Below, one piece after another: positions 44,883 through 60,934 of a stretch of DNA of 64,000 nt. The notes beneath the pieces are model-generated. The model worked only from the letters and a program-made list of their open reading frames with translations, had not been told where the DNA came from and did no database searches. The stretch is from assembly GCA_030426605.1 (NCBI GenBank), contig JAUHXM010000003.1, positions 9,406 through 73,405 on the forward strand, given 5' to 3'. The DNA comes from Phycisphaerae bacterium. GTDB lineage: Bacteria; Planctomycetota; Phycisphaerae; Phycisphaerales; UBA1924. The position numbers and the translations under genes were made by a program. The stretch's first letter is position 1. Every line of letters begins with the position of its first letter.

Positions 44883-46417
44883 TTCCCACCCCCAGCGAGA
44901 ACGTCTCGAGCGAGATCGCCCGCCGGTTCACCGAACGGTGCGGGCAACTCGGGCTCGGCGTCTGGCGCCTCGGCGCGGACGGATCCGTCAGCAGCGCCCC
45001 GGAAAATCCGGACGCGGCGCTCGACGCCCACGCGCTGACCGCGCTCGCACACGCGTGGGCCGACGTGCCCGCGCCGGAGCCCGTTCGGCTGGAGAACGGC
45101 GGCTGGGTCCTGCCCTTCCCCGTGCTCGAACGCCGCGCCCGTGCCGGGCATTACGCGGCCTTCTTGCCCGCGGAGCCCTCGGGAGCCTCGCCCCCGGCGG
45201 GCACGGTCCACCAACTCCACCAAACACTCGCGTGGCTGCTCGATGAGCTGCGCACCGGCTCCACCGCCCGGGCGGACCTCGAGTACGTCACCGACCAGCT
45301 CACCGACTCGTACGAGTCCTTCCACTCGCTGTACGAAGTCGGCCGAGCGATGGGTCAGATCGACGAGCCCGACCGGTTCGTCCGCGGGCTCGTCGCCGAG
45401 CTGGGCGAGACGCTCCCATTCGCCTGGTTCCGCTGCGTGACAACCGACGGCGCGACGGGCGACGAATCCGTCGATGAACGCCGGTTCGAGCACGGCGATT
45501 TCCCGGCCGACGACGCCGACTTCGACCGCGTCATGGACCTCGTCCGCGCCCGCGAGACCGAGACCGGCGGTGACCGCACGATCATCCTCACGACGCCCCA
45601 CGATCTCGTGGGCGCCCTCGGCCCGCAGGTGATCGCCCAGCCCGTGCGCGCGGGCGGGCGCGGCATCGCGATGCTCGTCGCGGGCTCACGACAGGGCGCC
45701 GAGCCCGACGTCACGAGCCACGAGACCAAGCTCATCGAGGCCGCCGGCGGGTTGCTCGGCACCTTCCTCGAGAACGCCGGGCTCTATGTCGAGAAGGAAC
45801 GCACCTTCATCGGCACCATCCGCTCGATGACTTCCGCGATCGATGCCAAGGACCGCTACACCCGCGGCCACTCGATCCGCGTTGCCAAACTCTCGCGCCG
45901 CATCGCCCTCGCCGCGGGTCTCGACGACAAGACCGCCGAGCAGATCTATATCTCAGGGCTCGTGCACGATGTCGGCAAGATCGGCGTCCCCGAGGCCGTC
46001 CTCACCAAAGCCGGACGCCTGACCGACGAGGAGTTCGAGCTCATCAAGCGCCACCCAGACATCGGGCACGAGATCCTGAGCGGCATCCCCTCGCTCAAGC
46101 CGATCCTCCCGGGCGTGCTCCACCACCACGAACGCTGGGACGGCGCCGGCTACCCCCGCGGGCTCGCCGGGGCGGACATCCCCCTCATGGCGCGCGTCAT
46201 CGGGCTCGCCGACACCTTCGACGCCATGAGCTCAACACGCTCCTACCGCTCGGCCATGCCGCGCGACAAGGTCCTCGCCGAGATCGAACGCTGCGCGGGC
46301 ACCCAGTTCGACCCCGTCCTCGCGGCCCTCATGCCCACGATCGACCTCAGCGAGTACGACGCCCTCGTCGAAGAGCACCGCGCGACGGACCCGACCCACA
46401 CGCTCACCGCCGCCTGA
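44879..46417 (+). CDS. HD-GYP domain c-di-GMP phosphodiesterase with N-terminal sensory (GAF-like) region
   Basis: It contains RGHSIRVA...LVHDVGKIGVPEAVL...HHHERWDGAGYPRGL...DTFDAMSSTRSYR. Confidence 0.88.
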   Translation: MIPTPSENVSSEIARRFTERCGQLGLGVWRLGADGSVSSAPENPDAALDAHALTALAHAWADVPAPEPVRLENGGWVLPFPVLERRARAGHYAAFLPAEPSGASPPAGTVHQLHQTLAWLLDELRTGSTARADLEYVTDQLTDSYESFHSLYEVGRAMGQIDEPDRFVRGLVAELGETLPFAWFRCVTTDGATGDESVDERRFEHGDFPADDADFDRVMDLVRARETETGGDRTIILTTPHDLVGALGPQVIAQPVRAGGRGIAMLVAGSRQGAEPDVTSHETKLIEAAGGLLGTFLENAGLYVEKERTFIGTIRSMTSAIDAKDRYTRGHSIRVAKLSRRIALAAGLDDKTAEQIYISGLVHDVGKIGVPEAVLTKAGRLTDEEFELIKRHPDIGHEILSGIPSLKPILPGVLHHHERWDGAGYPRGLAGADIPLMARVIGLADTFDAMSSTRSYRSAMPRDKVLAEIERCAGTQFDPVLAALMPTIDLSEYDALVEEHRATDPTHTLTAA

Positions 46418-46422
46418 ACCCA

Positions 46423-47712
46423 TCAATCCAGATCTCGCCGCCACGGCTGCATCGTGAGAGTTGTCCCCGAGTCGCCGTCGGCGTACCCGGGCGGCGGCAC
46501 GTTCCGCGCTTCGCTCCAGGTGTCGAGTCGCAGGATCGCACCTACGTCCATCGTGATCTCGTTATCCGCGAACAAGTGCCCCTCGATCACAAGGTTCGCG
46601 CCGGTCGCGATCACGGCGTCACCCTCGATGTGGACAATGCCCTCGATCGAGCTCGGGTAGGTGTCGGCGGTGTCCGAGTCCTCCACGCCGCGCGCGTCGG
46701 GCACGCCCGCGGGGTTGAAGTTCACGCCCACGGACGATTCGGACAGATCGTCCGCGGTCATCTGGAACGTCATATCGCCCTCGCTCACGATCAACGCGGG
46801 GTACCCCTCCACGACCGGCGTGAACGAGTTCGACCCACGGATCACCGAGCCCGATCCGGGGTTGTACAGCACCAGAGTGCCGTGCATGCGGAAGTTCTCG
46901 ATTACCACATCCCGCCCGTTGAGCATGATCGAGTAGATGCCATCATCGTTGAGCGTGTTCGACTTGTACGGGTTGTGCCCAGGCCCGAGCGCCGCGTTCG
47001 TGAGCAGATGCACGTTGCTCACCCGTGGGATCTGCGATCTCGGGATCAGGACCCCCATCATGTCGTACGTGCGGGCGATATCAGCGCACGCGGGCAGCGT
47101 GCGCGCGCTCACGCTGCTCGCCGTGGTCGAGGTGTACACCGCGCCTTCGACCTTGTTCTCCGCTTCCACGGGCACGTGCACGAACGCGGTGTTGGCCTTC
47201 ACGTCGATCTTGGACGCGAGAGTCTCATCGCCCAGCACGGCGGCGTTGAACTCAAGCGTGACCGTATTCCCCCCAAGAGCGCCGACTTCCAGACAGTCGA
47301 GCGCTTTCGCCGACGAGACGGCCTCGAACGGGACGATGATCTGGCGGCGGGCGTCGCCGTACGTGCCGATACCGATCATCTCAAAGGGGTCGTCCGGGTC
47401 GGCACCCAGCGTCGCACCGCTGGGGCCGCAAACGGTGAGGGTGAACGTCCCGTCGCGCTCGTCGCCGGTCGGGGCGGCGTCAGCGAACCATTCCCCTTTC
47501 CCGCGGTCGGTCCGCCATCGATCGTCTTCCGAGATGTGCTGCATCCCCAGCTCGACCGCCGCCCGCGCGAGCGCCGCGGCCCGCGCGGTGTCGTGCGCCG
47601 TCTCCGCCCGCGCCCGCTGGCGCGTCTGCGCGAGCACGCCCGCGGTGCCGAGCAACGCGACGACGGTGACCGTCGAGAGCACGACCAGGTAGATGGATCC
47701 ACGCCGATGCAT
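46423..47712 (-). CDS. Large terminal minor-pilin-like protein (PilX/GspK-like N-terminus, beta-rich C-terminal domain)
   Basis: ATG at 47712 has GAGGAG 6 nt upstream. It begins MHRRGSIYLVVLSTVTVVALLG (hydrophobic, no Glu5). It is the last gene of the pilin block. The C-terminal half has repetitive beta-strand-like segments. Confidence 0.5.
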   Translation of the reverse strand: MHRRGSIYLVVLSTVTVVALLGTAGVLAQTRQRARAETAHDTARAAALARAAVELGMQHISEDDRWRTDRGKGEWFADAAPTGDERDGTFTLTVCGPSGATLGADPDDPFEMIGIGTYGDARRQIIVPFEAVSSAKALDCLEVGALGGNTVTLEFNAAVLGDETLASKIDVKANTAFVHVPVEAENKVEGAVYTSTTASSVSARTLPACADIARTYDMMGVLIPRSQIPRVSNVHLLTNAALGPGHNPYKSNTLNDDGIYSIMLNGRDVVIENFRMHGTLVLYNPGSGSVIRGSNSFTPVVEGYPALIVSEGDMTFQMTADDLSESSVGVNFNPAGVPDARGVEDSDTADTYPSSIEGIVHIEGDAVIATGANLVIEGHLFADNEITMDVGAILRLDTWSEARNVPPPGYADGDSGTTLTMQPWRRDLD

Positions 47713-47722
47713 CGTCACCTCC

Positions 47723-48340
47723 TCAGCGCCCCAGCAGCCCGCCGATGCCCAGCACGTCCAGCAGCCCGCCGCCGTCGTCGGAAGCGTCGGCGGGCGGCAT
47801 GCCCGAGCGGATCGCGTCCGCGCCGAGCGTGCGCAGGCCGACCGCGCGACCGACGACCTTGCGGTCGTGGGTGACCGTGACCGTGATCCGCTTGACCCCC
47901 TGCCCGCCCGAGAGCACGCCCAGGTCGGCCAGGGTGTCCGCGTTCACGAGCTTGACCTCGACGGACCGAGTCCAGGACTTGGAGTACCCAGCCAGCGCGG
48001 TGCCGTCCCCATCCGTCGGCGGGGAGGCCGACCACCCGTCGAAGTCGTCCACGTCGTCGAACGACCCCCACTGTGTCGGCGAGCCTTCATCGGACTCAAT
48101 TTTGATGATGCCCAGATCGATCGCGAGGTCCGGGTCCGAGTAGGGCAACGCCGAGATCGCGTCGAGCAGGTCCTCGGCGAGCAGCTGCCCGCGGGCCTGG
48201 TCCACGGTGCGCTCACGCTCGAGCACCGAGGCCCCCACCGCGTTCATCGCCGCGAGCATGAGCCCCGCGATCAGCATCGTCGAGATGACGACCTCGATGA
48301 GGGTGAGCGCACGCCGGGTTGTCCGCATGGATCGCATCAC
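47723..48340 (-). CDS. Prepilin-type minor pilin/pseudopilin
   Basis: The N-terminus is TTRRA|LTLIEVVISTMLIAGLMLAAM. Its start overlaps the upstream stop (ATGA). Confidence 0.65.
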   Translation of the reverse strand: MMRSMRTTRRALTLIEVVISTMLIAGLMLAAMNAVGASVLERERTVDQARGQLLAEDLLDAISALPYSDPDLAIDLGIIKIESDEGSPTQWGSFDDVDDFDGWSASPPTDGDGTALAGYSKSWTRSVEVKLVNADTLADLGVLSGGQGVKRITVTVTHDRKVVGRAVGLRTLGADAIRSGMPPADASDDGGGLLDVLGIGGLLGR

Positions 48341-48837
48341 TCGGGCCCGTTCACGAGCTGGACGCGCCGGCGGAACGGCTCGCCCGGCATGTCCATGAGG
48401 GTGATCTCGATGGTGACGGCGACCGTCGCCGCCCCGTCCCGTTCTGCCTGCGCCGAGAAGGTCGCAACGCCGTCCAGCAGAACGAGCGTCCGCTGGTCCG
48501 GATCGCTCCAGACGGCGACGAGCTCGTCGGTGTCCACGTCCACGCCGTACTTGACCCGCTCGTCCGCCTTGTCGCCGTTTCGGTCGGCGACCGTCGCGTT
48601 GATGCGCGATGCCACAGCGATGGTCTGCGCGTACGCGAGGTCGTCGGCGATGATCTCCAACGCCCGGGCCGCCTCGATGGCCCGCGCCGCCCGGCTGTCC
48701 GGGTCCGGGATCGCCCGCGACGCGAGCACCATGACGGACCCCATCGAGACGAGCAGCACCGTCGCGATCGACAGGCTGACCGCCATCTCCGCGAGCGTGA
48801 ACGCGCGGGCGCGATGTCCTGGCCGCCGGGCCATCAA
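48337..48837 (-). CDS. Prepilin-type minor pilin/pseudopilin
   Basis: The N-terminus is HRARA|FTLAEMAVSLSIATVLLVSM. Its start overlaps the upstream stop (ATGA). Confidence 0.65.
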   Translation of the reverse strand: MMARRPGHRARAFTLAEMAVSLSIATVLLVSMGSVMVLASRAIPDPDSRAARAIEAARALEIIADDLAYAQTIAVASRINATVADRNGDKADERVKYGVDVDTDELVAVWSDPDQRTLVLLDGVATFSAQAERDGAATVAVTIEITLMDMPGEPFRRRVQLVNGPE

Positions 48838-49409
48838 GGCGTCAGTTCCTTCAATTCGATCGCTTCTGCCTTCGCCTCGGTCGCAACCAGCACCGTGTCC
48901 GGCGCGAGCGAGCCGACGCTGAGGTCCACCGACCCGCCGCCCCAGAGGCGCAGCTCGGAGATCTCCACGGTGCTCTGCCCCGCCTGGACGGCGACGACGG
49001 CGTAGTACCGCCCCGCCATCACCGCGATGTATGCGTCCTCCGTCGCGAGCCCCTGCGCGTCAAACACGGGCGACCCGAGCGCCGCCGCACGCTGGGCGAG
49101 GTACAGGTCGCTGTCGTACGGCGATGAATCCAACGCAAACTTCGAGCGCACCTCACCCGCGAGCGGTCCGGACACGAACGTCACATTCAACGACTCAGCC
49201 ACCATGTCCGCGTTCGCGGTCACCTCACATTCCTGGGCCCGCGCGAGCTCGGACGCGAACCGAAGTTCCTCGGCGATGCGCCGCGCCGCCAGGTCCGCCC
49301 GGTAGCGTGTCGCCGCCATGCCGTACCGCGGCGCCGCGACCGCCGCGATCACCGCGATGATCGCGACGACGATCACGAGCTCGATCAGGCTGAACGCGCG
49401 GGGGTGCAT
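48834..49409 (-). CDS. GspH/FimT-like minor pilin
   Basis: It begins MHPRA|FSLIELVIVVAIIAVIAAVAAPRY, followed by RRIAEELRFASELA, typical of GspH/FimT family N-termini. Confidence 0.65.
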   Translation of the reverse strand: MHPRAFSLIELVIVVAIIAVIAAVAAPRYGMAATRYRADLAARRIAEELRFASELARAQECEVTANADMVAESLNVTFVSGPLAGEVRSKFALDSSPYDSDLYLAQRAAALGSPVFDAQGLATEDAYIAVMAGRYYAVVAVQAGQSTVEISELRLWGGGSVDLSVGSLAPDTVLVATEAKAEAIELKELTP

Positions 49410-49420
49410 GCGGGCTCCTC

Positions 49421-49480
49421 AACGAGAAAGCCGCCGACACTCACACCCGCAGCGAATGCTGCACGGCGTGGGCGGCGGCG
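49421..49480 (-). terminator. Candidate attenuator/terminator hairpin downstream of the major pilin gene
   Basis: A GC-rich outer stem (GCCGCCG 49430..49436 pairing with CGGCGGC 49473..49479) encloses a perfect inner hairpin, GCAGC-GAAT-GCTGC (49449..49462). On the minus strand it is followed by CTTTCTCGTT (49430..49421). It lies in the 104-nt gap between the pilin gene and the minor-pilin block. Confidence 0.25.
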
Positions 49481-49513
49481 ACCCCATTGGTTCGTCCAGC
49501 GGGTGAGCGAGAC

Positions 49514-50011
49514 TTAGTACGACGAGTACGCCACGCCGCGGTCGTCGGTCTCGGTGCCCGGCAGGTTCGCCGAGATGGTGCCGGTGTCCTCGTCGTACAC
49601 CCACCCGGCGGTCGTGCCGCCCTGCGTCGCGACGATGCCGTTCTGACCGCGGTTGGTCCCAACCTTGAGGGCCGGGATCGAGCGGAGGTAGGGCCCATAG
49701 ATATGGGTCGAGTCCTTGGTCGCGCTCGTCGCACCGGCGGCGCTCGTGAACTGGGTCAGCTCATCCTCGAACGCCGCGAACGAGGGGTAGTCGCCGCCGT
49801 GCTCGGCCTCGTAGAGGTCGATCGCGTTGCGGAGCACCGCGAGGTCCGCGACAAGGGCCGAATCGGCGGCGCCCGCGGCACCGCGGCTCATCCGCGGGAT
49901 CGCGATGGCACCGATGATGCCGATGATGACCACGACGATCACGAGCTCGATCATGCTGAACGCACGCGCTCGGCTCGCTCCCTGAATACGACTCTGAAGT
50001 GCTGCCAGCAT
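49514..50011 (-). CDS. Major pilin/pseudopilin-like protein (system 2)
   Basis: It reads SRARA|FSMIELVIVVVIIGIIGAIAIPRM, then DLAVLRNAIDLYEAEHGGDYP, a GspG/type IV pilin-like pattern. The product is 165 aa. It is the first pilin gene after the assembly genes and has its own flanking gaps. Confidence 0.75.
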   Translation of the reverse strand: MLAALQSRIQGASRARAFSMIELVIVVVIIGIIGAIAIPRMSRGAAGAADSALVADLAVLRNAIDLYEAEHGGDYPSFAAFEDELTQFTSAAGATSATKDSTHIYGPYLRSIPALKVGTNRGQNGIVATQGGTTAGWVYDEDTGTISANLPGTETDDRGVAYSSY

Positions 50012-50081
50012 GGCTCATGTCTCCAAACGGGGTTTCCCTGACGGGTTCGCGATTCACAGATCGGTGCGATGACACCCCGGC

Positions 50082-50672
50082 TTAAGTGTCCGGGCCCGAT
50101 CCAGAATCTCCCGCCGGCGCAACCCCACCCCGGGGTGTTATCGGCTTCATATACGGCGCCTCTCTCATCTTCAGCGTGTGCTCTCGGGCGCCGTCGCGGA
50201 GGACGGCAGACCCCGTCCGCACGCTGATGAGCCGATAACCGGTCCCGGGGACCACCTCGCCGACGCGCACCGAGTGCCCGTTGATGATCGCCAACCCCGA
50301 CGCGCCCGGCAGCACCGCGCTGAGCGACAGCGCACGCGCGGGATCGATGCCCGGCTCTTCAACCCCATCCGTGCCCGCGGACGCGGCGATCCCACCCCAC
50401 GACTCCGGGATGCTGAACGCATCGCTGAGCGTGTGCCCCTCGACCCCGGTCTCGCGCACACGACGCGCGATCGGCGCGAGCGAACCGGTCTTGGGCGCCG
50501 CCCCCGCGTCCTCGGCCAGAACCGTCGGGGCCGCGCCCGCGGACGCGTCCGCCGGCGGCACCGTCCCCGCAGAGACCGAAGCCGGCGCAAAGAACACCTG
50601 ATCCATGAGCAGCGCCGCGACCGCGACGACGAGCACGCCCACAAACACCTTGCGTTCCTTCGTCAGCTTCAT
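50082..50672 (-). CDS. PilP/GspC-like protein
   Basis: ATG at 50672 overlaps the pilO-like stop by 1 nt. It begins MKLTKERKVFVGVLVVAVAALLM (a TM helix), followed by an Ala/Pro linker and a C-terminal domain (LAIINGHSVRVGEVVPGTGYRLISVRTGSAVL) resembling PilP/GspC beta domains. The rest of the track ORF (to 50993) was rejected. Confidence 0.5.
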   Translation of the reverse strand: MKLTKERKVFVGVLVVAVAALLMDQVFFAPASVSAGTVPPADASAGAAPTVLAEDAGAAPKTGSLAPIARRVRETGVEGHTLSDAFSIPESWGGIAASAGTDGVEEPGIDPARALSLSAVLPGASGLAIINGHSVRVGEVVPGTGYRLISVRTGSAVLRDGAREHTLKMREAPYMKPITPRGGVAPAGDSGSGPDT

Positions 50673-51217
50673 CAGTCCGCTCCCTCGGCCGAGTCCGAGA
50701 ACCACGCGAGCCGCATCGAGAAGCCGCCGTCGCCTGTCCGGGCGTCGCCGCGCAGCTCGAACGAGTCGATGGTGACGTTGGGCATCCGCTCGATGACATC
50801 GGACATGAACAAGGCACAGGCCTCGAACGCACCAACGCCGTCCGCCTCGATGGGGGTCACATCGAACAGCTGCGTCCGGCTTGCATCGCCCGCGCTGAGG
50901 GAATCCAGCCGGACGCCGCGCTCCGTCGCGATCGAGGCGAGCCGGGCCATGCCCGCGTTGAGCGTCCCCCGTTGGTCCCGCTGCGCGGCCCAACCGGCAC
51001 CCAGATCCTGCACCGCGACGAGCTCCTCACGCATCGCCCGCTGCTCCTGTAGCGCCACGTCGCGATCCGCGAGCAGACGCGCACGCTCTTCGTTGAGCTC
51101 GCGCTGGACCTCGTTCCGGTCGAGCTCGGGCAGCACACCAACGACGACCCCACCCGCGATCACGCCCACCAGGGCGACGCCCCCGATGGCGTGTGTTCTC
51201 CAGCCCGCCGCGTTCAT
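50672..51217 (-). CDS. pilO: PilO/GspM-like protein
   Basis: ATG at 51217 overlaps the pilN-like stop (ATGA). It has a TM helix (AIGGVALVGVIAGGVVVGVL), a coiled coil and an alpha/beta C-terminal domain. It follows pilN in the operon. Confidence 0.55.
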   Translation of the reverse strand: MNAAGWRTHAIGGVALVGVIAGGVVVGVLPELDRNEVQRELNEERARLLADRDVALQEQRAMREELVAVQDLGAGWAAQRDQRGTLNAGMARLASIATERGVRLDSLSAGDASRTQLFDVTPIEADGVGAFEACALFMSDVIERMPNVTIDSFELRGDARTGDGGFSMRLAWFSDSAEGAD

Positions 51218-51828
51218 GGCGTCACCTCCGCGACCCGCGCCTCGCCCCAGAGGTCGGCATCCAACTCGAACGACACGCACGCGCGAGACCCGATCGTCAC
51301 GGGCCCCGTCCGCATGGGCGACACCCGGTCGAACAGCCCGGACTCCTCCAACGCCAACGCGTACGCCTGAGCGCTCGCCAGGTCACGCCCCACGCCCTCG
51401 AGCGTGATCGACACCCGCGACCCACCCCCCGGTTCCGCGGGCGTCCCGTCCGCCGCCAGCGTGCCGAGATCCACACGCACGATCGTGACCCGCTCGGCGC
51501 GGTGCGCGTCGAGCGTCGCCAGCAGCCGGCCCCAGTCCGGGCGGTCCGACAACCGCGTCGCGGCCCCCGCTTCGGCTCGGGCACGCGCCATCAGCCCGCG
51601 CATCCGCTCGAGGTCCGACCCGATGTCGGTCAGCTGTGCCTTCAGACGTGCGACGTCTCCCCGCGCCGACCGAACCCCCGCGTCGGAGCCGACCCGCAAC
51701 CCGGCCGTCCCCAGCGCCACCAGCGCGGCAGCGGAGACGACCGCGATGCCCCAGCGCAGCCGCCACCGACGCTCGGCGCGGTGCTCGAGAATCACACCGG
51801 GGATCAGGTTGACACGAACGTGCGTCAT
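51214..51828 (-). CDS. pilN: PilN-like protein
   Basis: ATG at 51828 overlaps the pilM stop (ATGA). It begins MTHVRVNLIP, matching the PilN N-terminal INLLP-type motif that binds PilM. A TM helix and coiled coil follow. Confidence 0.6.
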   Translation of the reverse strand: MTHVRVNLIPGVILEHRAERRWRLRWGIAVVSAAALVALGTAGLRVGSDAGVRSARGDVARLKAQLTDIGSDLERMRGLMARARAEAGAATRLSDRPDWGRLLATLDAHRAERVTIVRVDLGTLAADGTPAEPGGGSRVSITLEGVGRDLASAQAYALALEESGLFDRVSPMRTGPVTIGSRACVSFELDADLWGEARVAEVTP

Positions 51829-52877
51829 CCAGCCCCCCCGCCATCGAGACCGGCCAGGGCGCACGCCGCCGCGAGCGTCGGCCCCGGTGCCGTCGAGACC
51901 GCGTCGGAGGCGTTCGTCACCAGACGATCGGCCACCAACGGCGTTGTCTCGATCCCACCGATCGTGTTGACCCGATCCACAACGACGCTCAGCGACGCCC
52001 CGCCACCGCACAGCAGGACCGCTCCCGCCGCGTCCTTGCGGTACCGGTGCGAGGCGTACCCGAGCGACGCCTGGATCTCGGTGACCAGCGTCCCCGCGAG
52101 TTCGTCGATCGCACGGCGCACCGACGCATGGCCCGAAACCCCACGCAACGTCGCGTCCCGCACGAGCATCTCAGCCGACCCCGGATCCATCCGCCCCGTC
52201 GTGCTCGCCCGCGCCACGACGCCACTCAAACCGCACGACTCGCATTCACGCTGATACACAAGCACGCCCTGGTACATCACACCCAGCGTGGTGCTCGCCC
52301 ACCCAACGTCCGCGATCACCGTGAACGGCTCCGCGCCCAAACCGCGCGCGGCGACCGCCGTGCACAGCGCCGTGAGCACCGGCTCGGCGCCGACCACCTC
52401 GATCCCGACCTCCTCGAACCGCTCCACGACCTCGACCAGCGGGGACCGCTCGGTCGCGAGGGCCATGGCCGTCCCGCCCGATGAACGCCGACCACTCGAT
52501 GGCATCTCCCACCACGCCTGCTCGATCGAGGACGGGTCGAGCTTGCGGACACGTGCGATCTCCGCGGCCACGATCTGATCGACCGGAACGCCGTCCGCCT
52601 TGGGGGGGCGCTCGATCTCCTCGAACATCGCCGCCGAACGCGGCACGCCGAGCACCACCGCGTGACCGGTGAACCCCTGCCGGAACAAAACGCGCTCGAT
52701 CCGTGCGATCTCTTCCGCGTCCGGGTAGACCCCGGTGCCCGTGCGGGCGAACTCGGTCGCCGCCGCAAGCTGCACCGCCACCCCCGGCGCACGCACCTGC
52801 GCGGCCTTGATCGTCTTCGACCCCACGTCGAGCCCGATCGGAGATCGCGTCGTGTTGTTCGCCAGCGGGTTTCTCAC
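51825..52877 (-). CDS. pilM: PilM-like actin-fold pilus assembly protein
   Basis: It contains IGLDVGSKTIKAAQV and LLCGGGASL, actin/HSP70-like phosphate motifs. The product is 350 aa and lies upstream of pilN. GTG at 52877 overlaps the pilC stop (GTGA). Confidence 0.75.
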   Translation of the reverse strand: MRNPLANNTTRSPIGLDVGSKTIKAAQVRAPGVAVQLAAATEFARTGTGVYPDAEEIARIERVLFRQGFTGHAVVLGVPRSAAMFEEIERPPKADGVPVDQIVAAEIARVRKLDPSSIEQAWWEMPSSGRRSSGGTAMALATERSPLVEVVERFEEVGIEVVGAEPVLTALCTAVAARGLGAEPFTVIADVGWASTTLGVMYQGVLVYQRECESCGLSGVVARASTTGRMDPGSAEMLVRDATLRGVSGHASVRRAIDELAGTLVTEIQASLGYASHRYRKDAAGAVLLCGGGASLSVVVDRVNTIGGIETTPLVADRLVTNASDAVSTAPGPTLAAACALAGLDGGGAG

Positions 52878-54106
52878 ACCGGCGGCCCTCCCCCGCCCGC
52901 CGTCGCGGTCAGGTCAAACAACGGCAGGAACATGCTCACAGCCACGAACCCCACGATCAGACCCAGCACGATCATGATCACCGGCTCGATCAGCGACGAC
53001 AGCGACTTGATCACCGTCTCGTTCTCTTCATCCAGGTAATCCGCGACGTTGAGCAGCACCGCGCCGAGCTTGCCGCTCTGCTCGCCGTTGCGGATCGCCT
53101 CACACACCGACGGCGCAATCAGATCGGACCCACCAAGCGCACTGCTGACCGACTCGCCCTTGGTGACCAGCTCCTCGGCACGCTCGATCAACGCGGTGTA
53201 GTTGCGGTTGCTCATCGCCGCGCGCGTCAGTGGCAGCGCCTCCATCAGCGGAACCCGGCTCTCGAGCAGCACGCCCAGCAGACGCGCGATCCGCGCCGTC
53301 GCGAACGAACGCACCAGCACGCCGATCTTGGGCAGCTTGAGCACCATGCCGTCGCGGAACGCCGCCCCGCCCTCGCTGCGCAGCCACCAGACGAATCCGA
53401 CCACCGATGCAACCGCGGCGGGCACGATCCCCCACCAGTACGACCGAAGGATGTCCGAGAGCGTCATCAGGATGTCCGTCGTCGGCGGAAGCGGCGTGTC
53501 CAGCGTCTCGAACAGCCCGCCGAACCGCGGCAGGACGAACGCCACCATGAGCCCGAGCACGATCGCCGCGATGCAGATCAAAAGTGCCGGGTAGACCATC
53601 GCGCCCGCGATGGCGCTCTGCGCCGCCGCCTGCCGGCGCGCGAGCGACGCGAGCCGCTCGAGCATCTTGTCGAGCTGGCCCGACGACTCACCCGCCGCGA
53701 CAAGACTCCGAGAGACAGCGTCGAACATCTGCGGCTGCTCACCCATCGCCTCGGAGAGCGGCATGCCTTCTTCGACCTTCGCGCTCACCGCGCCGATCGC
53801 GGCCTTCACGCCCTCGTTCGTGCTCTGCCGCTCGATCGCGTGCAACGCCTCGACCACCGGCGTGCCCGTCGAGACGAGCACCGACATCTCGCGCGCAAAG
53901 ACCGCGACCTGCTTCGGGCTCGACCGCCGCTTCTTCCCCGGCTTCGCGCCAGACGCACGCTCGGCGTCCCCTGAGGCTTCCTCGGTGGAGACCACGAACA
54001 GGCCGCGTTTGCGCAGCCGTTCCGCCGCGTCATCCGCGGATGCCGCCTCGATGATCTCCACGACCGACTCGCCCGACTTGCTGTACGCCGTGCAACGAAT
54101 CCTCAT
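52874..54106 (-). CDS. pilC: PilC/GspF-type inner-membrane platform protein (system 2)
   Basis: The product is 410 aa with duplicated GspF-type domains and three TM segments. ATG at 54106 overlaps the pilB stop (ATGA). Confidence 0.9.
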   Translation of the reverse strand: MRIRCTAYSKSGESVVEIIEAASADDAAERLRKRGLFVVSTEEASGDAERASGAKPGKKRRSSPKQVAVFAREMSVLVSTGTPVVEALHAIERQSTNEGVKAAIGAVSAKVEEGMPLSEAMGEQPQMFDAVSRSLVAAGESSGQLDKMLERLASLARRQAAAQSAIAGAMVYPALLICIAAIVLGLMVAFVLPRFGGLFETLDTPLPPTTDILMTLSDILRSYWWGIVPAAVASVVGFVWWLRSEGGAAFRDGMVLKLPKIGVLVRSFATARIARLLGVLLESRVPLMEALPLTRAAMSNRNYTALIERAEELVTKGESVSSALGGSDLIAPSVCEAIRNGEQSGKLGAVLLNVADYLDEENETVIKSLSSLIEPVIMIVLGLIVGFVAVSMFLPLFDLTATAGGGGPPV

Positions 54107-55908
54107 GCCGCGGCCTCCCGTGGAGACGTGATCTCCTCCTCATTGCCGTCATCGGAGTGCGTCACGCGCAGCACCTCTTCCAGACTCGTCTTGCCCGCGA
54201 TCGCGAGCAGGACGCCCTCCTCGCGAAGCGACAACCGCCCGAGATCGCGCAGCCGCGCCCGGATCTCGTGCGTCGGCGCGTTCCGATAGATCATCCGACG
54301 GATGTCGGGGGTGACCTCCATGAACTCGTAGACGCCCAGACGCCCTCGGAACCCCGAGTCATGACAGCTCTGGCACCCGGCGCCCTTGCGGAACGACCGC
54401 CCGACCATGTCGCCCAGCCCGGCGTCGGCGAGCACCAGCTCGCTCGGGTAGTACTTCGTCGCGCATTCCTGGCAGATCGTCCGGGCCAGCCGCTGAGCGA
54501 CCACGCCGTTGATCGCCGAGCTCAGCAGGTAGCTCTCCACGTTCATGTCGAGCAGCCGCGCGACCGCGCCGGGCGCGTCGTTCGTGTGCAGCGTTGCGAG
54601 CACGCCGTGCCCCGTCAGCGCCGCCTGCACCGCGACCCGGGCCGTCTCTTCGTCGCGGATCTCGCCGACCATGATCACGTCCGGGTCCTGACGCAGCACG
54701 CTTCGCAGCACCCGCGCAAAGCTCAGCCCGATGCCCTCGTTCACCTGGATCTGGTTCACCAGGTCGAGCTGGTATTCCACCGGGTCCTCGACCGTGATGA
54801 TGTTCCGCTCCGGGCTGCGCAACAGATCGAGCGCCGAGTACAGCGTCGTCGTCTTGCCCGACCCCGTCGGCCCGGTCACCAGCACCAGGCCGTGCGGCTG
54901 ATTCAGCACGCGCTTGAACGACCCGAGCTCCTCCGTCCGGAACCCAAGATCCTCGAGCTTCACCTTCAGGTTCTGCTTGTCGAGCACGCGGATCACGAGC
55001 TTCTCGCCCAGCAGCGTCGGGATGCTCGACACGCGTAAATCGACCTCGCGCCCCTCCGCCACGATCCGCACCCGCCCCTCCTGGGGCAGCCGCTTCTCGG
55101 CGATATCCATCTTCCCGATGATCTTGATGCGGCTCACGATGGCCGCGTGCATGTTCTGCGGCGGGTTCATCAGGTCACGCAGCGCGCCGTCCATCCGGTA
55201 CCGGATCCGCGTGCCGCGCTTGTCGGGCTCGACGTGGATATCGCTCGCCCCGTCCTTCACAGCGCGAAGCAACGCCACGTTCACGAGGTTCACGATCGGC
55301 GACCCATCGACCATCTGGTCCAGGTCCGTCGAGGGCCCCTCGTCCACGCTCTCACGCTCGACGACCTCAACGTCCGACTCCGCGAGGCTCGTCAGGAACG
55401 CGTCCACGTCCACGTTGCCGCCGGCGCACTTCTTCACAAACTCGCGGATGTTCGCTTCCATCGCGAGCACCGGACGCACGGTGCACCCCGTGAGCTGCAC
55501 GATCCGGTCGATCGTCGGCAGGCTCTGCGGCTCGGCCATCGCGACCGTCAGCTCGTTGCGCACCTTAAACAGCGGGATCGCCCGCAGGCGCTCCGCCTCG
55601 TCGTCGCCGAGCAGGCTCAGCAGCGACGGGTCGATCAAACCGTGCCGCAGCACCACGCCGGGCATCCCGATCGCCCGCGCCAGCGCCTGCACGAGCACCT
55701 GCGGCGTCAGCAGGCCCTGCTCGATGAGCACCTCGCCGAGCATCGTGCCCGAAGTCTTCTGCTGCCGAAGCGCGCGCGACACCTGCTCGTCGGAGACAAG
55801 CCCCTGCGCAACGAGCACCTCGCCCACGCGCATCTTCGCGCCCGGCGTGGGCGTGGGCGGGCTCGTCTCGCCCGCCCGCTCCTCGATGGGGCGTTCCGCC
55901 TCGCTCAC
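54103..55908 (-). CDS. pilB: PilB/GspE-family assembly ATPase with MshEN-type N-terminal domain (system 2)
   Basis: It has Walker A GPTGSGKTTT, VGEIRDEETA, TGHGVLATLHTND and a tetracysteine motif (CQEC...CQSC). The N-terminus carries RVGEVLVAQGLVSDEQVSRALRQQ plus MLGEVLIEQGLLTPQVLVQALARA. GTG at 55908 overlaps the STAS gene stop (GTGA). Confidence 0.92.
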   Translation of the reverse strand: MSEAERPIEERAGETSPPTPTPGAKMRVGEVLVAQGLVSDEQVSRALRQQKTSGTMLGEVLIEQGLLTPQVLVQALARAIGMPGVVLRHGLIDPSLLSLLGDDEAERLRAIPLFKVRNELTVAMAEPQSLPTIDRIVQLTGCTVRPVLAMEANIREFVKKCAGGNVDVDAFLTSLAESDVEVVERESVDEGPSTDLDQMVDGSPIVNLVNVALLRAVKDGASDIHVEPDKRGTRIRYRMDGALRDLMNPPQNMHAAIVSRIKIIGKMDIAEKRLPQEGRVRIVAEGREVDLRVSSIPTLLGEKLVIRVLDKQNLKVKLEDLGFRTEELGSFKRVLNQPHGLVLVTGPTGSGKTTTLYSALDLLRSPERNIITVEDPVEYQLDLVNQIQVNEGIGLSFARVLRSVLRQDPDVIMVGEIRDEETARVAVQAALTGHGVLATLHTNDAPGAVARLLDMNVESYLLSSAINGVVAQRLARTICQECATKYYPSELVLADAGLGDMVGRSFRKGAGCQSCHDSGFRGRLGVYEFMEVTPDIRRMIYRNAPTHEIRARLRDLGRLSLREEGVLLAIAGKTSLEEVLRVTHSDDGNEEEITSPREAAA

Positions 55909-56240
55909 AGGAAACTCCGCGCCGCGTGGTGCGCATCCTCGTAGTGCTCGAACTCGTCAGACAAACCCGTCAGGTTCAACGCCTCACGCAGCGTCTCGCC
56001 CGCCTGGCACAGCTTGAGCGTCTGCCCGCTCGGCGCGAGCAGCTCGGTGATCTCGAGCAACGCCTCGAGCCCCTGCGAATCGACGAACGGGATCTCCGCC
56101 GCGTCGAGCACGAACCGCCCGCGCGTCTGCGTGAACACCTCGTGCGCCCGGCGCGCAAGGCCCTTCGCGTCGTCCCCGATCACCGGCCCGCGCGGACGCA
56201 GCACCGTGACGGCCCCTTGCTTGTGCTCTTCGATCTCCAT
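55905..56240 (-). CDS. STAS-domain protein (anti-sigma-factor-antagonist-like)
   Basis: The product is 111 aa and reads VTVLRPRGPVIGDDAKGL...FVLDAAEIPFVDSQGLEALLEI...LKLCQAGETLREALNLTGL, the SpoIIAA/RsbV pattern, including the conserved DSxG (phosphorylatable Ser context). Confidence 0.8.
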   Translation of the reverse strand: MEIEEHKQGAVTVLRPRGPVIGDDAKGLARRAHEVFTQTRGRFVLDAAEIPFVDSQGLEALLEITELLAPSGQTLKLCQAGETLREALNLTGLSDEFEHYEDAHHAARSFL

Positions 56241-56253
56241 GGGCGCCCCCTCC

Positions 56254-58089
56254 TCACGCCGCCCGCGCCGGACGCTCGCGCGCCGGCACCGTCAGCGTGA
56301 ACGTGCTCCCCTCGTTCAGGACCGACTCGACCGTGATGTCTCCGCCATGCAGACGAGCGACCTCGCGTGCCAGCGACAGCCCGATCCCCGAGCCCGTGAT
56401 ATCCCGCACACGCTCGTCGTCGGCCCGCCCGAACCGCTCGAACACCTTGTCGATCTGCTCCGGCGCGATGCCGATGCCCGAATCCACGACCTCGATGGCA
56501 ACCGAGTCGTCGGTCCCCACGCTCACACGCACCGTCACCGTGCCCCCCGAGGGCGTGTACTTCAGCGCGTTGCTGATCAGGTTGTGGATCGCCAGGCACA
56601 GCTTGTCCCGGTCCGCGTGGATCACCGGCAGTTTGGGCGGCATCTCAAACCGCAGCGTGATGTTCCGGTCATTCGCCTGCGCGACATAATCCAACTGCAA
56701 CGAGTCGAACATCTGATCCAGCCGCACGTCGTCCTCGCGAAGCGCGATCGAGCCCGCCTCCAGCTCGGACACACTGAGCATGTCCGCGACAATCCGGTCC
56801 AGGCGAGCCGTCTCCTGGCTAATCACGTTGATCGCCCGGGCCCGAAGGGCCGCGTCCTCCTCGCCCTCATCGATGAGCTGCTCGATGTAGAGCCGGATGT
56901 TTGTGAGCGGCGCCCGCAGCTCATGCGTCGCCTGCGCCACGAACGCGTTGCGCGAGTCTTCCGCGAGCTTCAGCTGCGTGACATCCTCGATCGAAACGAG
57001 CACCGCCGCGTCAGGCACGCCCCGCGCCGCCCGCACCCCCAGGCGGAGCACGGTCCCGCCCTCGTCGTCCATCGCGACGTCCACGACGTCACGCCGGCGT
57101 GAGCCAGATTTTGTCGCCTCCCCGATGGCCTCCGCGACATCGCCCGCGTCCAACGGTGCGGGCGCGGGCGCGCCGATCAGGTCATCGCGGGCCACCCCGA
57201 GCAGCACCGCCGCGGCACCGTTCGCGTACGTCACGACCCCCGACGTGTCCAGCAGCACGACGCCGTCCGTAAGAAGGTCGCACACCGCCGAGCCCTCGCC
57301 GCCGACCATCGCCCCGCCGCTGGCCTGCTCGACGCGGGCGTCGGTGTCGCGCCGACGCCCCTCGTCCCGCTCGGCCAGCAGCGTGTTCCACGCCACAGCC
57401 TCCGGGCCGAACGACTCGTGCACGGCGAGCACCGCCGTCTCGTCCTCGCCGCCAGCGAGTTCGAGCAGCGCCTCACGCACCGCCCCGATCGCGCCCAGAC
57501 GCGACCGGAACCGCCGATAGACCAGCAGCATCATCGCCAGGCCCACCACGCCGCTCACAAGCGAACCGAGCAGGACCGCGCTCCGCGCCCGATGCACGCC
57601 GGGCGGCTCGATTTCCAACTCGCACATCGCCGCACCACGGCCCGGCACCGAGATCCCGCGCCGCACGAGCAACCCGACCGACTCCGCGTCACCGCTCGCG
57701 TTCCCGGACCAGGTCTCGGGCACTTCCCCGGTGTCGATCCGCGCGGGCTCCGAATCCGCAACCACACGCCCATCAGGCAGCAACACCCGGCACGCACGCA
57801 CGCCCCGGGTCTGCGCCGTCTCCATCACGATGCGCCGCAATGCGCTCGTCTCACCCGCCGCGAGCAGCAGCTCGGACGTGCTCGCCACCACTCCCGCGAT
57901 CTCGCTGACTTCTGCCCGGCGCGTCGCCTCGGCGTCCCGCTCGAGCGTGTCGGTCATCCACCACGCCGACGCCCCGGTCACGCACAGCAGCACCGCCGCG
58001 CACGCGAACGCCGTCGATGCGATCAGGGATTCCCCGCGCACCAGCCACCGCCGTGCCCAAGCCGATCTGGTCAGGTCGATGCCACCCAT
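56254..58089 (-). CDS. Sensor histidine kinase (2 TM + periplasmic loop, PAS-like, HisKA, HATPase_c)
   Basis: The H-box is FVAQATHELRAPLT. The N/G boxes are ISNALKYTP, DSGIGI and GSGIGLSLAREV. GGAGG lies upstream of ATG 58089. Confidence 0.88.
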   Translation of the reverse strand: MGGIDLTRSAWARRWLVRGESLIASTAFACAAVLLCVTGASAWWMTDTLERDAEATRRAEVSEIAGVVASTSELLLAAGETSALRRIVMETAQTRGVRACRVLLPDGRVVADSEPARIDTGEVPETWSGNASGDAESVGLLVRRGISVPGRGAAMCELEIEPPGVHRARSAVLLGSLVSGVVGLAMMLLVYRRFRSRLGAIGAVREALLELAGGEDETAVLAVHESFGPEAVAWNTLLAERDEGRRRDTDARVEQASGGAMVGGEGSAVCDLLTDGVVLLDTSGVVTYANGAAAVLLGVARDDLIGAPAPAPLDAGDVAEAIGEATKSGSRRRDVVDVAMDDEGGTVLRLGVRAARGVPDAAVLVSIEDVTQLKLAEDSRNAFVAQATHELRAPLTNIRLYIEQLIDEGEEDAALRARAINVISQETARLDRIVADMLSVSELEAGSIALREDDVRLDQMFDSLQLDYVAQANDRNITLRFEMPPKLPVIHADRDKLCLAIHNLISNALKYTPSGGTVTVRVSVGTDDSVAIEVVDSGIGIAPEQIDKVFERFGRADDERVRDITGSGIGLSLAREVARLHGGDITVESVLNEGSTFTLTVPARERPARAA

Positions 58090-58278: not shown

Positions 58279-58360
58279 TGGGCGAGGAGGGATTCGAACC
58301 CCCGAAGGCGATGCCAGCAGATTTACAGTCTGCCCCCGTTGGCCACTTGGGTACTCGCCC
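58279..58360 (-). tRNA. tRNA-Tyr (anticodon GTA), type II with long variable arm
   Basis: Hand-folded: GGGCGAG acceptor stem, anticodon stem-loop GCAGA-CTGTAAA-TCTGC, 13-nt variable arm, T-arm GGGGG-TTCGAAT-CCCTC, discriminator A. No CCA is encoded. Confidence 0.9.
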
Positions 58361-58422
58361 GTGATCGATCATCAAATTGTCGCGGGGTCATCGGCCGACC
58401 CCGCCCCCAACTCATCCGGAAG

Positions 58423-58495
58423 AGCCGCCTGCCGGACTCGAACCGGCGACCGTCGGTTTACAAAACCGATGCTCTACCAACTGAGCTAAAGCGGC
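58423..58495 (-). tRNA. tRNA-Thr (anticodon TGT)
   Basis: Hand-folded 73-nt cloverleaf: GCCGCTT acceptor stem, D-arm GCTC-AGTTGGTA-GAGC, anticodon stem-loop TCGGT-TTTGTAA-ACCGA, T-arm GCCGG-TTCGAGT-CCGGC. No CCA is encoded. Confidence 0.9.
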
Positions 58496-58544
58496 GGGTG
58501 CGGACACTCCCGCGTCTCGACCCCCCCCGACGGAGAGAGCCGAA

Positions 58545-58618
58545 TGGGCGATACAGGACTCGAACCTGTGACCCCCAGTGTGTCATACTGGTGCGCTAGC
58601 CAACTGCGCCAATCGCCC
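58545..58618 (-). tRNA. tRNA-Val (anticodon GAC)
   Basis: Hand-folded 74-nt cloverleaf: GGGCGAT acceptor stem, anticodon stem-loop CCAGT-ATGACAC-ACTGG, T-arm ACAGG-TTCGAGT-CCTGT. No CCA is encoded. Confidence 0.9.
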
Positions 58619-58723: not shown

Positions 58724-59392
58724 TCAATTCGCCCCGAGGACCACGATCTCCACCCGCCGGCTGTCCTGCTTGGTCGCCCGCTGGTTCGCGGGCCCGAACG
58801 CCGCTGAATAGATCCGATCCGGGTCCACGCCCTTGCTCACCAGGTACGCCTCGACCGCCAGCGCCCGCTCCGAACTCAGCCGCTCGTTCGTCTTCCACGA
58901 GCTCTTGCGGATCGGGTCCGTGTCCGTGTACCCCTCGACGCGGATCATCTGAGACCCGTACCGAGACTGGAGCACCCGAGCCACGCTGTCGAGCGACGAC
59001 TTCGCCGAGTTCTTCAGCGTCACCGAGCCCGACGCGAACAGCACGTCGCCCGCGACCTCAACCGCGATCGCGTCCGTCCGCCCGCTCACGTTCACGCCCG
59101 GGATGTTCTCGAAGCCCGAGCTCGTCGCCGCAGGCTGGGTCGTCTGCGACGCCAGCTGGGTGCGGAGCATCTGCGACTCGGTCGCCAGCGCCGTCTTCTC
59201 GTTCTCGCACGCCGCGATGGACTCGTTCGCCTGCCGGACAACGTCCTGCAGCCCGGCGATCCGCTCGCGCAGCTCCGTGTTCTCCTGAATCGCCGCGTCG
59301 TAGTCGGCCTTGTTGACCGTCTTGCACCCGCCGACCAACGCCGCCGTGAGGGCCAGCCCGGCCGCGCACCGAATCATCTTCGTCCTGTCCAT
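58724..59392 (-). CDS. OmpA/MotB C-terminal-domain lipoprotein with coiled-coil N-half
   Basis: ATG at 59392 has GGAG 8 nt upstream and gives MDRTKMIRCAAGLALTAALVGGC (lipobox). The C-terminus (VLFASGSVTL...IRVEGYTDTDPI...NERLSSERALAVEAYL...RRVEIVV) is the OmpA-like peptidoglycan-binding domain. Confidence 0.85.
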   Translation of the reverse strand: MDRTKMIRCAAGLALTAALVGGCKTVNKADYDAAIQENTELRERIAGLQDVVRQANESIAACENEKTALATESQMLRTQLASQTTQPAATSSGFENIPGVNVSGRTDAIAVEVAGDVLFASGSVTLKNSAKSSLDSVARVLQSRYGSQMIRVEGYTDTDPIRKSSWKTNERLSSERALAVEAYLVSKGVDPDRIYSAAFGPANQRATKQDSRRVEIVVLGAN

Positions 59393-59548
59393 CCGTGAGT
59401 CTCCGTGTTGTCGTGATGCAGCGTCCTCCGGACGCGCCATCGTCCGGCATCAATGTATCCGCGATCCGCGCCGTCTGCCTGCACCCGAGAACAATCCGGA
59501 CGTTCCACCCGCCCACCTCAGGCCGGGAACCCCGCTGGCATCACCGAG

Positions 59549-60934
59549 TTAGGGCAGGTCGATCGAGTACCCGAACACCCGGACCAGCCCCGCCTCGATC
59601 GCCGGCTTGCCCAGCAGGACCAGCAGCGTCGCGACCGCCAGGAAGGGCCCGTACGGCATCGCCCGGGGCATCCGACGCAGCACCACCCCGCCCGCAAGGA
59701 CGTACGCCAGCCCCACGAACGCCGCCCCGAAGAACGCGATCACCGAGTCGATCCACCCGCAGCACGCCCCGACCGCCGCCATCAGGTGCACGTCCCCCAG
59801 CCCCATCGCTTCCTTCCCGAACGCCAGCGACCCCCCAATCCGGACCGCCCAGACGACCGCCCCACCGATCAGATACCCCAGCAGCACCCCCGCCAGAACA
59901 ACCAGCCACAGCGGTGCCGCCACGAACGCGCCCCCCTCGCCCGCGGCGAGCTTCGGGCCCAGGATCGCGCCGAGGTACCCGAGCCCCGCCGGTGCCGCCA
60001 GGAACGCGAGTTCCTTCACCATCTCCCGCCGAGCGTGCGGGTACCGGATCCACATCGCCGGGTCGTCGATCGCCGCACCCGCGGCGTCGTCCGGCATCGG
60101 CGGCGGCTCGCTCGCGTCCGGCGCCGCCTTCGGCCTCGCCTCCTCGATCCGATCGAGTTCCGCGCGTTCCCACGCCTCGTAGTCGCCAAAGCTCCGCGTG
60201 ATCAGGCCGAACCGCATCATCAGCAGCGACACGCCCAGCCCGAGCGTCCCGCCCAGCGCGACCCCGATCGCGCGCCAATCCGTGAGCGCCGGCGTCGCGA
60301 GCGTCCAAACGCACCCCTCCGCCGATACCCACCGCTCGCCGTCGTCGAACCGCCAGCGCCCCGGGTCGATCTCTGAGATGACACCGTGCGCGATCTCGCT
60401 GTACGCCGCGTGCCCGACGTGGAACACGAGCGCCACCACCACCGGCACCCACGTGAGGACCAGCGGGATCGTAAACGTCCGCGCGTCGATGATCGTCATC
60501 GCGACCAGACACCCCAGCAGGACCACCAACACCACGAACGCGGGCCAGGTCTCCATCGCGCCGTTGAGCGCCCACTCCGGCTTGATCGCGCCCAGCCCCA
60601 TCGCCGCATCCGCGGGGATGACATACCACAGCGCGAAGACCGCGCCGAACAGCACCGCGACGATCGTCTCGACGATCGGGTACTCGGGCGAGATCGGCGC
60701 CGTGCAGAACCGACACCGCCCGCGCAGGAACAGCCACCCGAAGATCGGGATGTTCTCTTTCCACGTCAGCACCCTGCCGCACCACGGGCACCGCGACGAC
60801 GGGATCACGACCCCCTCGCCCCGCGGCAGCCGATAGACGAGCACATTGATCAGCGACCCCACGCACGCACCGACCGCGATCACGAAGATCAGCGTCGTCA
60901 GCAGCGGCATCATGGTCAGCAACCAGTTCGGCAC
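59549..60934 (-). CDS. pilD: Prepilin peptidase / N-methyltransferase (A24 family), unusually long (461 aa)
   Basis: The N-terminus reads GSLINVLVYRLP...RCPWCGRVLTWKENIPIFGWLFLRGRCRFCTAPIS (zinc-binding CxxC pairs). The C-terminus has GLGDVHLMAAVGA (active-site Asp context). Long inserts lie between the conserved blocks. Confidence 0.88.
   Translation of the reverse strand: MPNWLLTMMPLLTTLIFVIAVGACVGSLINVLVYRLPRGEGVVIPSSRCPWCGRVLTWKENIPIFGWLFLRGRCRFCTAPISPEYPIVETIVAVLFGAVFALWYVIPADAAMGLGAIKPEWALNGAMETWPAFVVLVVLLGCLVAMTIIDARTFTIPLVLTWVPVVVALVFHVGHAAYSEIAHGVISEIDPGRWRFDDGERWVSAEGCVWTLATPALTDWRAIGVALGGTLGLGVSLLMMRFGLITRSFGDYEAWERAELDRIEEARPKAAPDASEPPPMPDDAAGAAIDDPAMWIRYPHARREMVKELAFLAAPAGLGYLGAILGPKLAAGEGGAFVAAPLWLVVLAGVLLGYLIGGAVVWAVRIGGSLAFGKEAMGLGDVHLMAAVGACCGWIDSVIAFFGAAFVGLAYVLAGGVVLRRMPRAMPYGPFLAVATLLVLLGKPAIEAGLVRVFGYSIDLP

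Follow-up and report, generated by a model that had tools for sequence, protein, structure and literature searches.

A secretin-less pilus-family operon conserved in the Phycisphaerales and the separately encoded secretins that may serve it

The window analysed here, a stretch of 64,000 nucleotides from a Phycisphaerae bacterium (positions 9406-73405 of contig C130 in assembly G000), contains two systems of the family that includes type IV pili (T4P) and type II secretion systems (T2SS): system 1, the operon of a giant secretin, and system-2, a pilus-type block on the minus strand at 46423-58089. System-2 is a real, conserved and uncharacterised lineage-specific variant of this family in the Phycisphaerales, and there is no secretin gene within 46423-58089. 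It is read here, tentatively, as a T4P-like machine that would cross the outer membrane via a separately encoded secretin, most likely a PilQ-like protein whose gene lies on contig C75 (the C75-type secretin).

The G000 assembly comprises 3.29 Mb in 165 contigs at ~69% G+C and is 90.7% complete. Genes were called from listed open reading frames (ORFs), their translations and a frame analysis based on third-codon-position GC (GC3), and domains were assigned with Pfam and NCBIfam. Conservation was followed in 40 relatives (41 genomes with G000) and in 200 genomes sampled across the order, and 11 system-2 loci of 15-20 kb were read gene by gene.

Gene content of system-2

Thirteen genes, all on the minus strand, lie between 46423 and 58089, and an earlier account of the window drawn from its letters alone (the sequence-only reading), which had placed a 13-gene block at these coordinates, is confirmed by the ORFs, by Pfam and NCBIfam domains and by profile matches. 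In operon order the genes are:

56254-58089, minus strand: sensor histidine kinase (HK), first gene of the operon (Pfam PAS, HisKA and HATPase_c)
55905-56240, minus strand: STAS-domain protein (Pfam STAS, 3.9e-14), with a 4-nt overlap with the PilB start
54103-55908, minus strand: PilB/GspE-type assembly ATPase bearing an MshEN domain at its N-terminus (T2SSE, 1e-133; MshEN, 3e-13)
52874-54106, minus strand: platform protein PilC/GspF (T2SSF, 5.5e-54; NCBIfam GspF, 351 bits, cut-off 424)
51825-52877, minus strand: PilM-like actin-fold protein (PilM_2, 1.7e-4 over residues 15-312; TIGR pilM, 3e-10)
51214-51828, minus strand: PilN-like bitopic protein (GC3 frame analysis, translation and an ortholog-profile match)
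50672-51217, minus strand: PilO-like bitopic protein (ortholog-profile match)
50082-50672, minus strand: PilP/GspC/GspB-like protein (membrane anchor, disordered linker and a C-terminal HR-type beta domain at about residues 115-170)
49514-50011, minus strand: major pilin, GspG-like (N_methyl; NCBIfam GspG as best match, 36.8 bits; 52-89% identity in relatives)
48834-49409, minus strand: minor pilin in the GspH/FimU position (N_methyl, 2.7e-6; synteny)
48337-48837, minus strand: minor pilin in the GspI/PilV position (N_methyl, 7e-4; synteny)
47723-48340, minus strand: minor pilin in the GspJ/PilW position (prepilin-type N-terminus in the translation and synteny; no Pfam match)
46423-47718, minus strand: tip minor pilin in the PilX/GspK position, 431 aa or 429 aa from the ATG (pilin-type N-terminus; structure model)

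The genes are closely packed, with 8 of the 12 junctions overlapping (by 4 nt in seven cases and by 1 nt in the other) and the others separated by gaps of 13, 70, 104 and 4 nt, which bears out the statement that most junctions overlap. Two further claims of the sequence-only reading hold as well: the pilin gene comes straight after the pilP-like gene in place of pilQ, and the window has no PilT gene, since contig C130 carries just two genes of the T2SSE family, the system-1 GspE and the system-2 PilB. PilM and PilN are separate genes with a 4-nt overlap, and there is no fused GspL.

The core proteins belong to recognisable superfamilies at some distance from the named types. The system-2 PilB scores 583 bits against NCBIfam PilB (cut-off 676) and 563 bits against GspE, under the equivalog cut-off in both cases, and is a superfamily member and not an NCBIfam PilB equivalog; it carries the MshE-type cyclic di-GMP (c-di-GMP) motif at residues 27-78 (NF053729, 61.4 bits, cut-off 38). 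Only weak Pfam and NCBIfam matches were obtained for PilM, that to TIGR pilM being full-length but below cut-off, and a nucleotide pattern scan of genome contigs for PilM gave no match. PilN and PilO have no Pfam match, and profiles built from 11 orthologs of each align with the Pfam-positive PilN (hhalign E = 4e-6) and PilO (E = 6e-10 over 166 columns) encoded on contig C22; PilN has in addition an N-terminal NLxP motif in which L and P are invariant. The score of the major pilin against GspG lies under the NCBIfam cut-off of 88.85 bits, and the order of the pilin genes fits G-H-I-J-K. All four system-2 pilins encoded at 47723-50011 have Ala, not Gly, at the -1 position of the prepilin site, a position occupied by Gly or Ala in the pilin orthologs of relatives.

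Structure models of the PilP-like protein and the tip pilin

In the AlphaFold model of the PilP-like protein, built from 9 sequences, a transmembrane (TM) helix is joined by a disordered linker to a C-terminal beta domain; the pLDDT is 85-95 over residues 111-170. Its top eight matches in the PDB are all PilP, GspC-HR, GspB or PulC-HR, including PilP (2y4y), 2lnv, GspB (4wfw) and PulC-HR (6hcg), and comparison with the GspC-HR chain in 3oss, a GspC-GspD complex, gives a TM-score of 0.78 and an rmsd of 1.6 Å. At the level of sequence, 3 of 9 orthologs have a Pfam T2SSB match, a word-index search with the protein recovered only one distant relative, and the profile is homologous over its full length to that of the PilP preceding the secretin in a paralogous cassette of relatives (hhalign E = 8e-18). 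The N-terminus is the TM helix, with no lipobox.

The HR fold of the PilP, GspC and GspB families binds the N0 domain of secretins, and secretin binding is to our knowledge the only role of that fold in these three families. With its HR domain modelled at high confidence, the PilP-like protein carries a secretin-docking fold, and a secretin acting in trans is therefore to be expected.

The model of the tip pilin (pLDDT 87.9) combines a long pilin helix with a small head and a beta-solenoid of ~290 aa. Its best PDB match is Thermus ComZ (6qvi, 1.5e-7), at ~10% sequence identity and a global TM-score of 0.27, followed by beta-solenoids of the DUF3494 type; the AlphaFold DB matches are PilX_N-domain proteins, and no T2SSK domain was found with Pfam. 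The family is small, with 11 matches, the two that bear organism names coming from Phycisphaeraceae and Phycisphaerales.

Conservation of system-2

Orthologs of the system-2 PilB occur in 20 of the 40 relatives and in 85 of the 200 genomes of the order, distributed over families f1 (39/56), f4 (34/56), f5 (9/19), f2 (2/56) and f3 (1/11). A clean gap separates them (62-91% identity) from paralogs, which reach at most 49%, and they form their own clade in the PilB tree. The core from the HK gene to PilO is kept in the same order in all 11 loci read, with the HK syntenic in 11/11 relatives and the STAS gene upstream of PilB at every locus and also in the paralogous cassette. Every gene from the HK to the tip pilin was detected by BLAST in 5 of these loci; in the other six, at least one of PilN, PilO, PilP or a minor pilin went undetected by BLAST or the locus ended first, and in G012 a separate ORF scan recovers PilO and the PilP-like gene. 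No secretin gene is present at any of the 11 loci, among them that of the closed genome G027.

Shorter versions are seen in family f5. The G038 cluster keeps the motor and PilM-N-O without PilP and the pilins, and that of G033 is without the minor pilins H to K and stops after the major pilin, beside chemotaxis genes. These short forms suggest that the parts of the machine are modular.

Secretins and motors in the genome

The genome-wide count of PF00263 secretins that the sequence-only reading had proposed returned five secretins, together with eleven genes of the T2SSE family, for the whole G000 assembly, so that 7 full-length PilB/GspE-type genes stand against 5 secretins. In the closed genome G027, the matches that cover almost all of the ATPase model number 10, likewise against 5 secretins, with system-2 at 2.785 Mb and the secretins at 0.11, 0.71, 0.83, 1.02 and 2.15 Mb. 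Extension motors clearly outnumber secretins in these bacteria. Because of this excess, it is probable that several inner-membrane machines share one pore in this order, through other secretins and not specifically through the giant one.

The secretins on contigs C159 and C105 adjoin their own ATPases, and two of the five, on C75 and C29, have no motor nearby. The motor clusters that lack a nearby secretin are system-2, a PilM-N-O-PilP-PilB cluster on C22, and those on C82 and C89. Two PilT/PilU-family genes score above the family cut-off, on C4 and C133.

The C75 secretin (L040:3230-6553, 1107 aa) has PilQ as its best NCBIfam match and shows weak N0/STN matches and an N1 domain. Its gene is preceded by genes for a GspG-like protein, a pilin, a GspH-like protein and a 95-aa protein and is followed by a TPR lipoprotein gene, and no motor genes lie nearby. 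In this genus, ~590 aa of acidic low-complexity sequence prolong the C-terminus of the C75-type secretin beyond its pore domain; the frames of its orthologs outside the genus measure ~600-1,100 aa, mostly 650-900, and the few C-terminal ends that were read are acidic tails too.

The C29 secretin (L041:8630-12490, 1286 aa), an orphan with a STAS gene and an RsbW-like kinase gene after it, was found in 41/41 genomes searched. Its N-terminal part of 1,080 aa shows neither an N0, an STN nor a Secretin_N domain that could be detected, and nearly all genomes have a separate protein of ~340 aa that is a paralog of its residues ~708-922.

The C22-type PilMNOP-PilB cluster is present in 9/9 relatives whose locus was read (L044, L100-L108); an HD-GYP-like gene lies upstream of it, it includes no secretin, and PilT and PilC are encoded elsewhere (contig C4). 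The C89 cluster (L045) consists of PilB-PilC, then prepilin-type proteins of 390, 429 and 685 aa, then a protein of 2001 aa in which no prepilin motif was detected.

A survey of 1,528 genomes found the genes of 99% of T4P distributed over several loci and those of 96.5% of T2SS at a single locus (PMC4793230). Since T4P genes are usually scattered in this way and the present genome has spare secretins, a pilus-type operon without pilQ is unremarkable.

Candidate secretins for system-2

The sequence-only reading had offered three options, a pore shared with system 1, a secretin encoded elsewhere and a filament confined to the periplasm. The second is the best supported, by the five PF00263 secretins, the two of them without a motor, and the HR fold modelled for the PilP-like protein.

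Among the secretins encoded elsewhere the C75-type is the leading candidate, although the case is circumstantial and it is not a demonstrated partner. It has a weakly matching N0 domain, with two or three pilins and a TPR lipoprotein encoded beside it, and occurs in 40/41 genomes. In relatives it belongs to the paralogous cassette, complete there and located beside recJ, that reads G-G-H-PilM-N-O-P-secretin-TPR lipoprotein-HK-REC-HD-GYP-STAS-PilB-PilC (REC, receiver), and in G000 and its clade the recJ-flanked locus retains only pilins, secretin and TPR lipoprotein. G000 has no ortholog of the C75-type PilB, the best match being 43% identical against 53-71% among true orthologs. Judged from gene content, the locus in this clade has lost its own PilMNOP and its HK-REC-HD-GYP-STAS-PilB-PilC genes. 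Within family f1, 39 genomes have system-2 only, 14 the C75-type motor only, 3 neither and none both. That a motor with a pore to reach and a pore bereft of its motor should serve one another is thus our preferred, tentative reading.

Several observations weigh against it. The f1 genomes with system-2 form one crown clade on the recJ tree, so that the exclusivity of the two motors in that family is probably a single evolutionary event. In f4 both motors usually coexist (29/56), and there, outside f1, genomes with system-2 have lost the C75-type motor no more often than the others. An argument from reciprocal loss, which looked strong in the 40 relatives, was accordingly given up: it comes down to about one event on the recJ tree and fails outside f1 in the 200 genomes. 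Genus g56 (G153, G197, G206) has the C75-type secretin with neither motor and no ATPase nearby, which implies that some other motor can use this secretin, and the C22-type PilMNOP-PilB cluster is a candidate for that other user. The C22-type PilP matches the C75-type PilP with E = 6e-16, about equal to the system-2 PilP (8e-18). The PilB tree has three old clades and does not place system-2 and the C75-type motor as sisters. Finally, at 90.7% completeness the assembly could lack another secretin.

Two other lines of argument were tried and set aside. Comparison of HR-domain profiles as a means of naming the secretin partner did not tell system-2 and the C22-type cluster apart, and an origin of system-2 as a duplicate of the C75-type cassette finds no support in the PilB tree, which puts the C75-type and C22-type motors together as weak sisters with system-2 outside.

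A bolder extension of the preferred reading, and a doubtful one, is that in the Phycisphaerales system-2, the C22 cluster and the secretin's own cassette time-share one PilQ-like secretin. The c-di-GMP/HK/STAS module of each motor would then decide which of them engages the pore, and the clade of G000 would have completed the trend by deleting the cognate motor.

It is unlikely that system-2 relies on the divergent orphan C29 secretin, either alone or together with the PilQ-like C75 one. Its surroundings are free of motor, platform and pilin genes, its presence in every genome means that it is always available, and the STAS and RsbW-like genes that come after it echo the STAS gene of system-2. 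However, a universal secretin shows no co-variation with system-2, this one has no detectable N0, the domain that HR domains bind, and it may equally serve the C22-type cluster.

Less likely again is that system-2 is independent of secretins, making either a short pseudopilus within the periplasm or a fibre with some other route across the outer membrane. Consistent with this are the lack of a linked secretin at any of the 11 loci (0/11, closed G027 included), the GspG-like pilin with its minor pilins in the T2SS order, and the G038 cluster, which does without PilP and every pilin. However, the PilP-like protein retains a well-folded HR domain, whose only role known to us is the binding of secretins, and the T2SS pseudopilus also requires a secretin. 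The tip pilin, moreover, is similar to the competence-pilus pilin ComZ. The periplasm-confined filament of the sequence-only reading, against which the HR domain and the ComZ-like tip both argue, is thereby left with a small chance.

The option that the sequence-only reading had preferred, while calling it unusual, involves the following gene:

8410-18351, minus strand: giant system-1 secretin, 3313 aa (27 Secretin_N stretches and a Secretin domain)

That system-2 shares this secretin, encoded 28 kb away in system 1, is highly improbable. In favour of sharing, the two lie on one contig in G000, G001 (of the same genus) and G013, although a linkage was seen in no other relative. Against it, no giant frame is found in 6 of the 20 system-2-positive relatives (G004, G010, G019, G027, G033, G038), giant frames are found in 11 relatives without system-2, and system 1 has a GspC-like protein of its own, to which the system-2 PilP profile shows hardly any match (hhalign probability 3.6%). 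The search, made in the 40 relatives with the C-terminal 699 aa as query, detected giant frames (1,605-4,834 aa) in 25 of them. Of the genomes without one, G027 is closed and has a largest related frame of 713 aa, G038 is 97% complete and G033 is 99% complete. As the giant secretin does not co-occur with system-2, obligate sharing is unsupported.

Genes flanking system-2

The sequence-only reading was right that all 13 genes are present and missed three that lie beside them:

44484-44882, plus strand: stand-alone receiver (REC) (NCBIfam response-regulator models), overlapping the HD-GYP start
44879-46417, plus strand: HD-GYP protein of the c-di-GMP phosphodiesterase family (HD_5, 8.7e-40), convergent on the operon end
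59549-60934, minus strand: prepilin peptidase (A24), 461 aa (PF01478 match at 59696-59929, 28.7 bits, cut-off 26.5)

The REC/HD-GYP pair at 44484-46417 belongs to the system-2 cluster, which is thus larger than 13 genes. The HD-GYP gene adjoins the operon in 7 of the 11 relatives read, and REC lies beside the HD-GYP gene in 7 relatives; in an eighth, G033, there is a weaker REC match (29% identity) and no HD-GYP match. The HD-GYP and REC proteins of the paralogous cassette have their best G000 matches in the system-2-adjacent proteins (39% and 51% identity, respectively), and the system-2 HK is likewise the best G000 match of the HK in that secretin-containing cassette of relatives.

The prepilin peptidase is the sole PF01478 match in the whole assembly. 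It is oversized (461 aa), lies 1.5 kb upstream of the operon and adjoins it only within the genus. Between this gene and that of the HK are an OmpA-like gene (58724-59440), syntenic in both genomes of the same genus, and three tRNA genes (Tyr, Thr and Val, minus strand, at 58279-58618), the latter lying between the OmpA-like gene and the HK gene.

Proposed mechanism and significance

System-2 is proposed to build a fibre under c-di-GMP control. The MshEN-bearing PilB together with PilC, held by an alignment complex of PilM, PilN, PilO and PilP, would polymerise the GspG-like pilin, and polymerisation would start on a tip complex of four proteins, the last of which bears the ComZ-like beta-solenoid. 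Assembly may be gated by c-di-GMP, with the REC/HD-GYP pair next to the operon receiving the signal of the operon's HK, and with the STAS protein as a further partner of the motor. The outer membrane would be crossed through a secretin encoded elsewhere, to which the PilP-like protein would dock with its HR domain, and the fibre may in that case be exposed at the cell surface.

Control of PilB and MshE by c-di-GMP through MshEN is known, and the word STAS does not occur in a 2024 review of PilB cofactors (PMC11656802). No description of the system-2 operon, or of secretin sharing in planctomycetes, was found in the literature. System-2 therewith adds an uncharacterised, order-wide pilus machine that combines T4aP-type alignment proteins, a GspG-like pilin and a ComZ-like tip with a built-in control set of HK, REC, HD-GYP, STAS and MshEN. 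Given the excess of motors over secretins, and a clade that retains a secretin, lipoprotein and pilins after losing the motor genes that usually flank them, the Phycisphaerales are a natural system in which to ask whether, and how, a single outer-membrane pore is shared by different type IV filament motors. Closed Phycisphaerales genomes are available, perhaps from cultured strains, and several carry system-2.

Comparison with known systems

System-2 resembles the type IVa pilus in its separate PilM, PilN and PilO, its HR-domain PilP, its PilB-type ATPase with MshEN and its PilC. As in the type IVa pili of Pseudomonas, Myxococcus and Thermus, there are four fibre-priming minor pilins and the genes are spread over several loci; the two PilT/PilU-family genes elsewhere in the genome may serve this or another machine. 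Unlike in those pili, no pilQ follows pilP, the PilP-like protein has a TM anchor instead of being a lipoprotein, GspG is the nearest relation of the major pilin, HK and STAS genes stand inside the operon, and all core proteins fall under the NCBIfam equivalog cut-offs.

With the T2SS (GspC-O) it has in common a GspE/GspF-like motor, a GspG-like subunit followed by four minor subunits in the order G-H-I-J-K, and a TM-anchored HR-domain protein that resembles GspC/GspB. It differs from the T2SS in that the locus is without GspD, GspL is split into PilM and PilN, the HR protein has no PDZ domain, and the terminal protein has a beta-solenoid in place of T2SSK.

The MSHA pilus of Vibrio cholerae likewise has an extension ATPase with the MshEN c-di-GMP-binding motif, but its locus encodes its own secretin, MshL, and has no HK/STAS/HD-GYP cassette; no secretin is present in the system-2 locus, and other Msh genes were not specifically searched for. 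The modelled tip pilin is comparable with ComZ of Thermus thermophilus in its combination of pilin helix, head and large beta-solenoid.

A further parallel is with the single-locus C75-type cassette, which has the same set of HK, REC, HD-GYP and STAS, placed before PilB-PilC, and the same PilM-N-O-P, with a PilP homologous over its full length. That cassette, in contrast to system-2, includes a PilQ-like secretin and a TPR lipoprotein and only G/G/H pilins, whereas system-2 has the G-H-I-J-K series and neither a secretin nor a lipoprotein, and the two PilBs are old paralogs with 42-45% identity.

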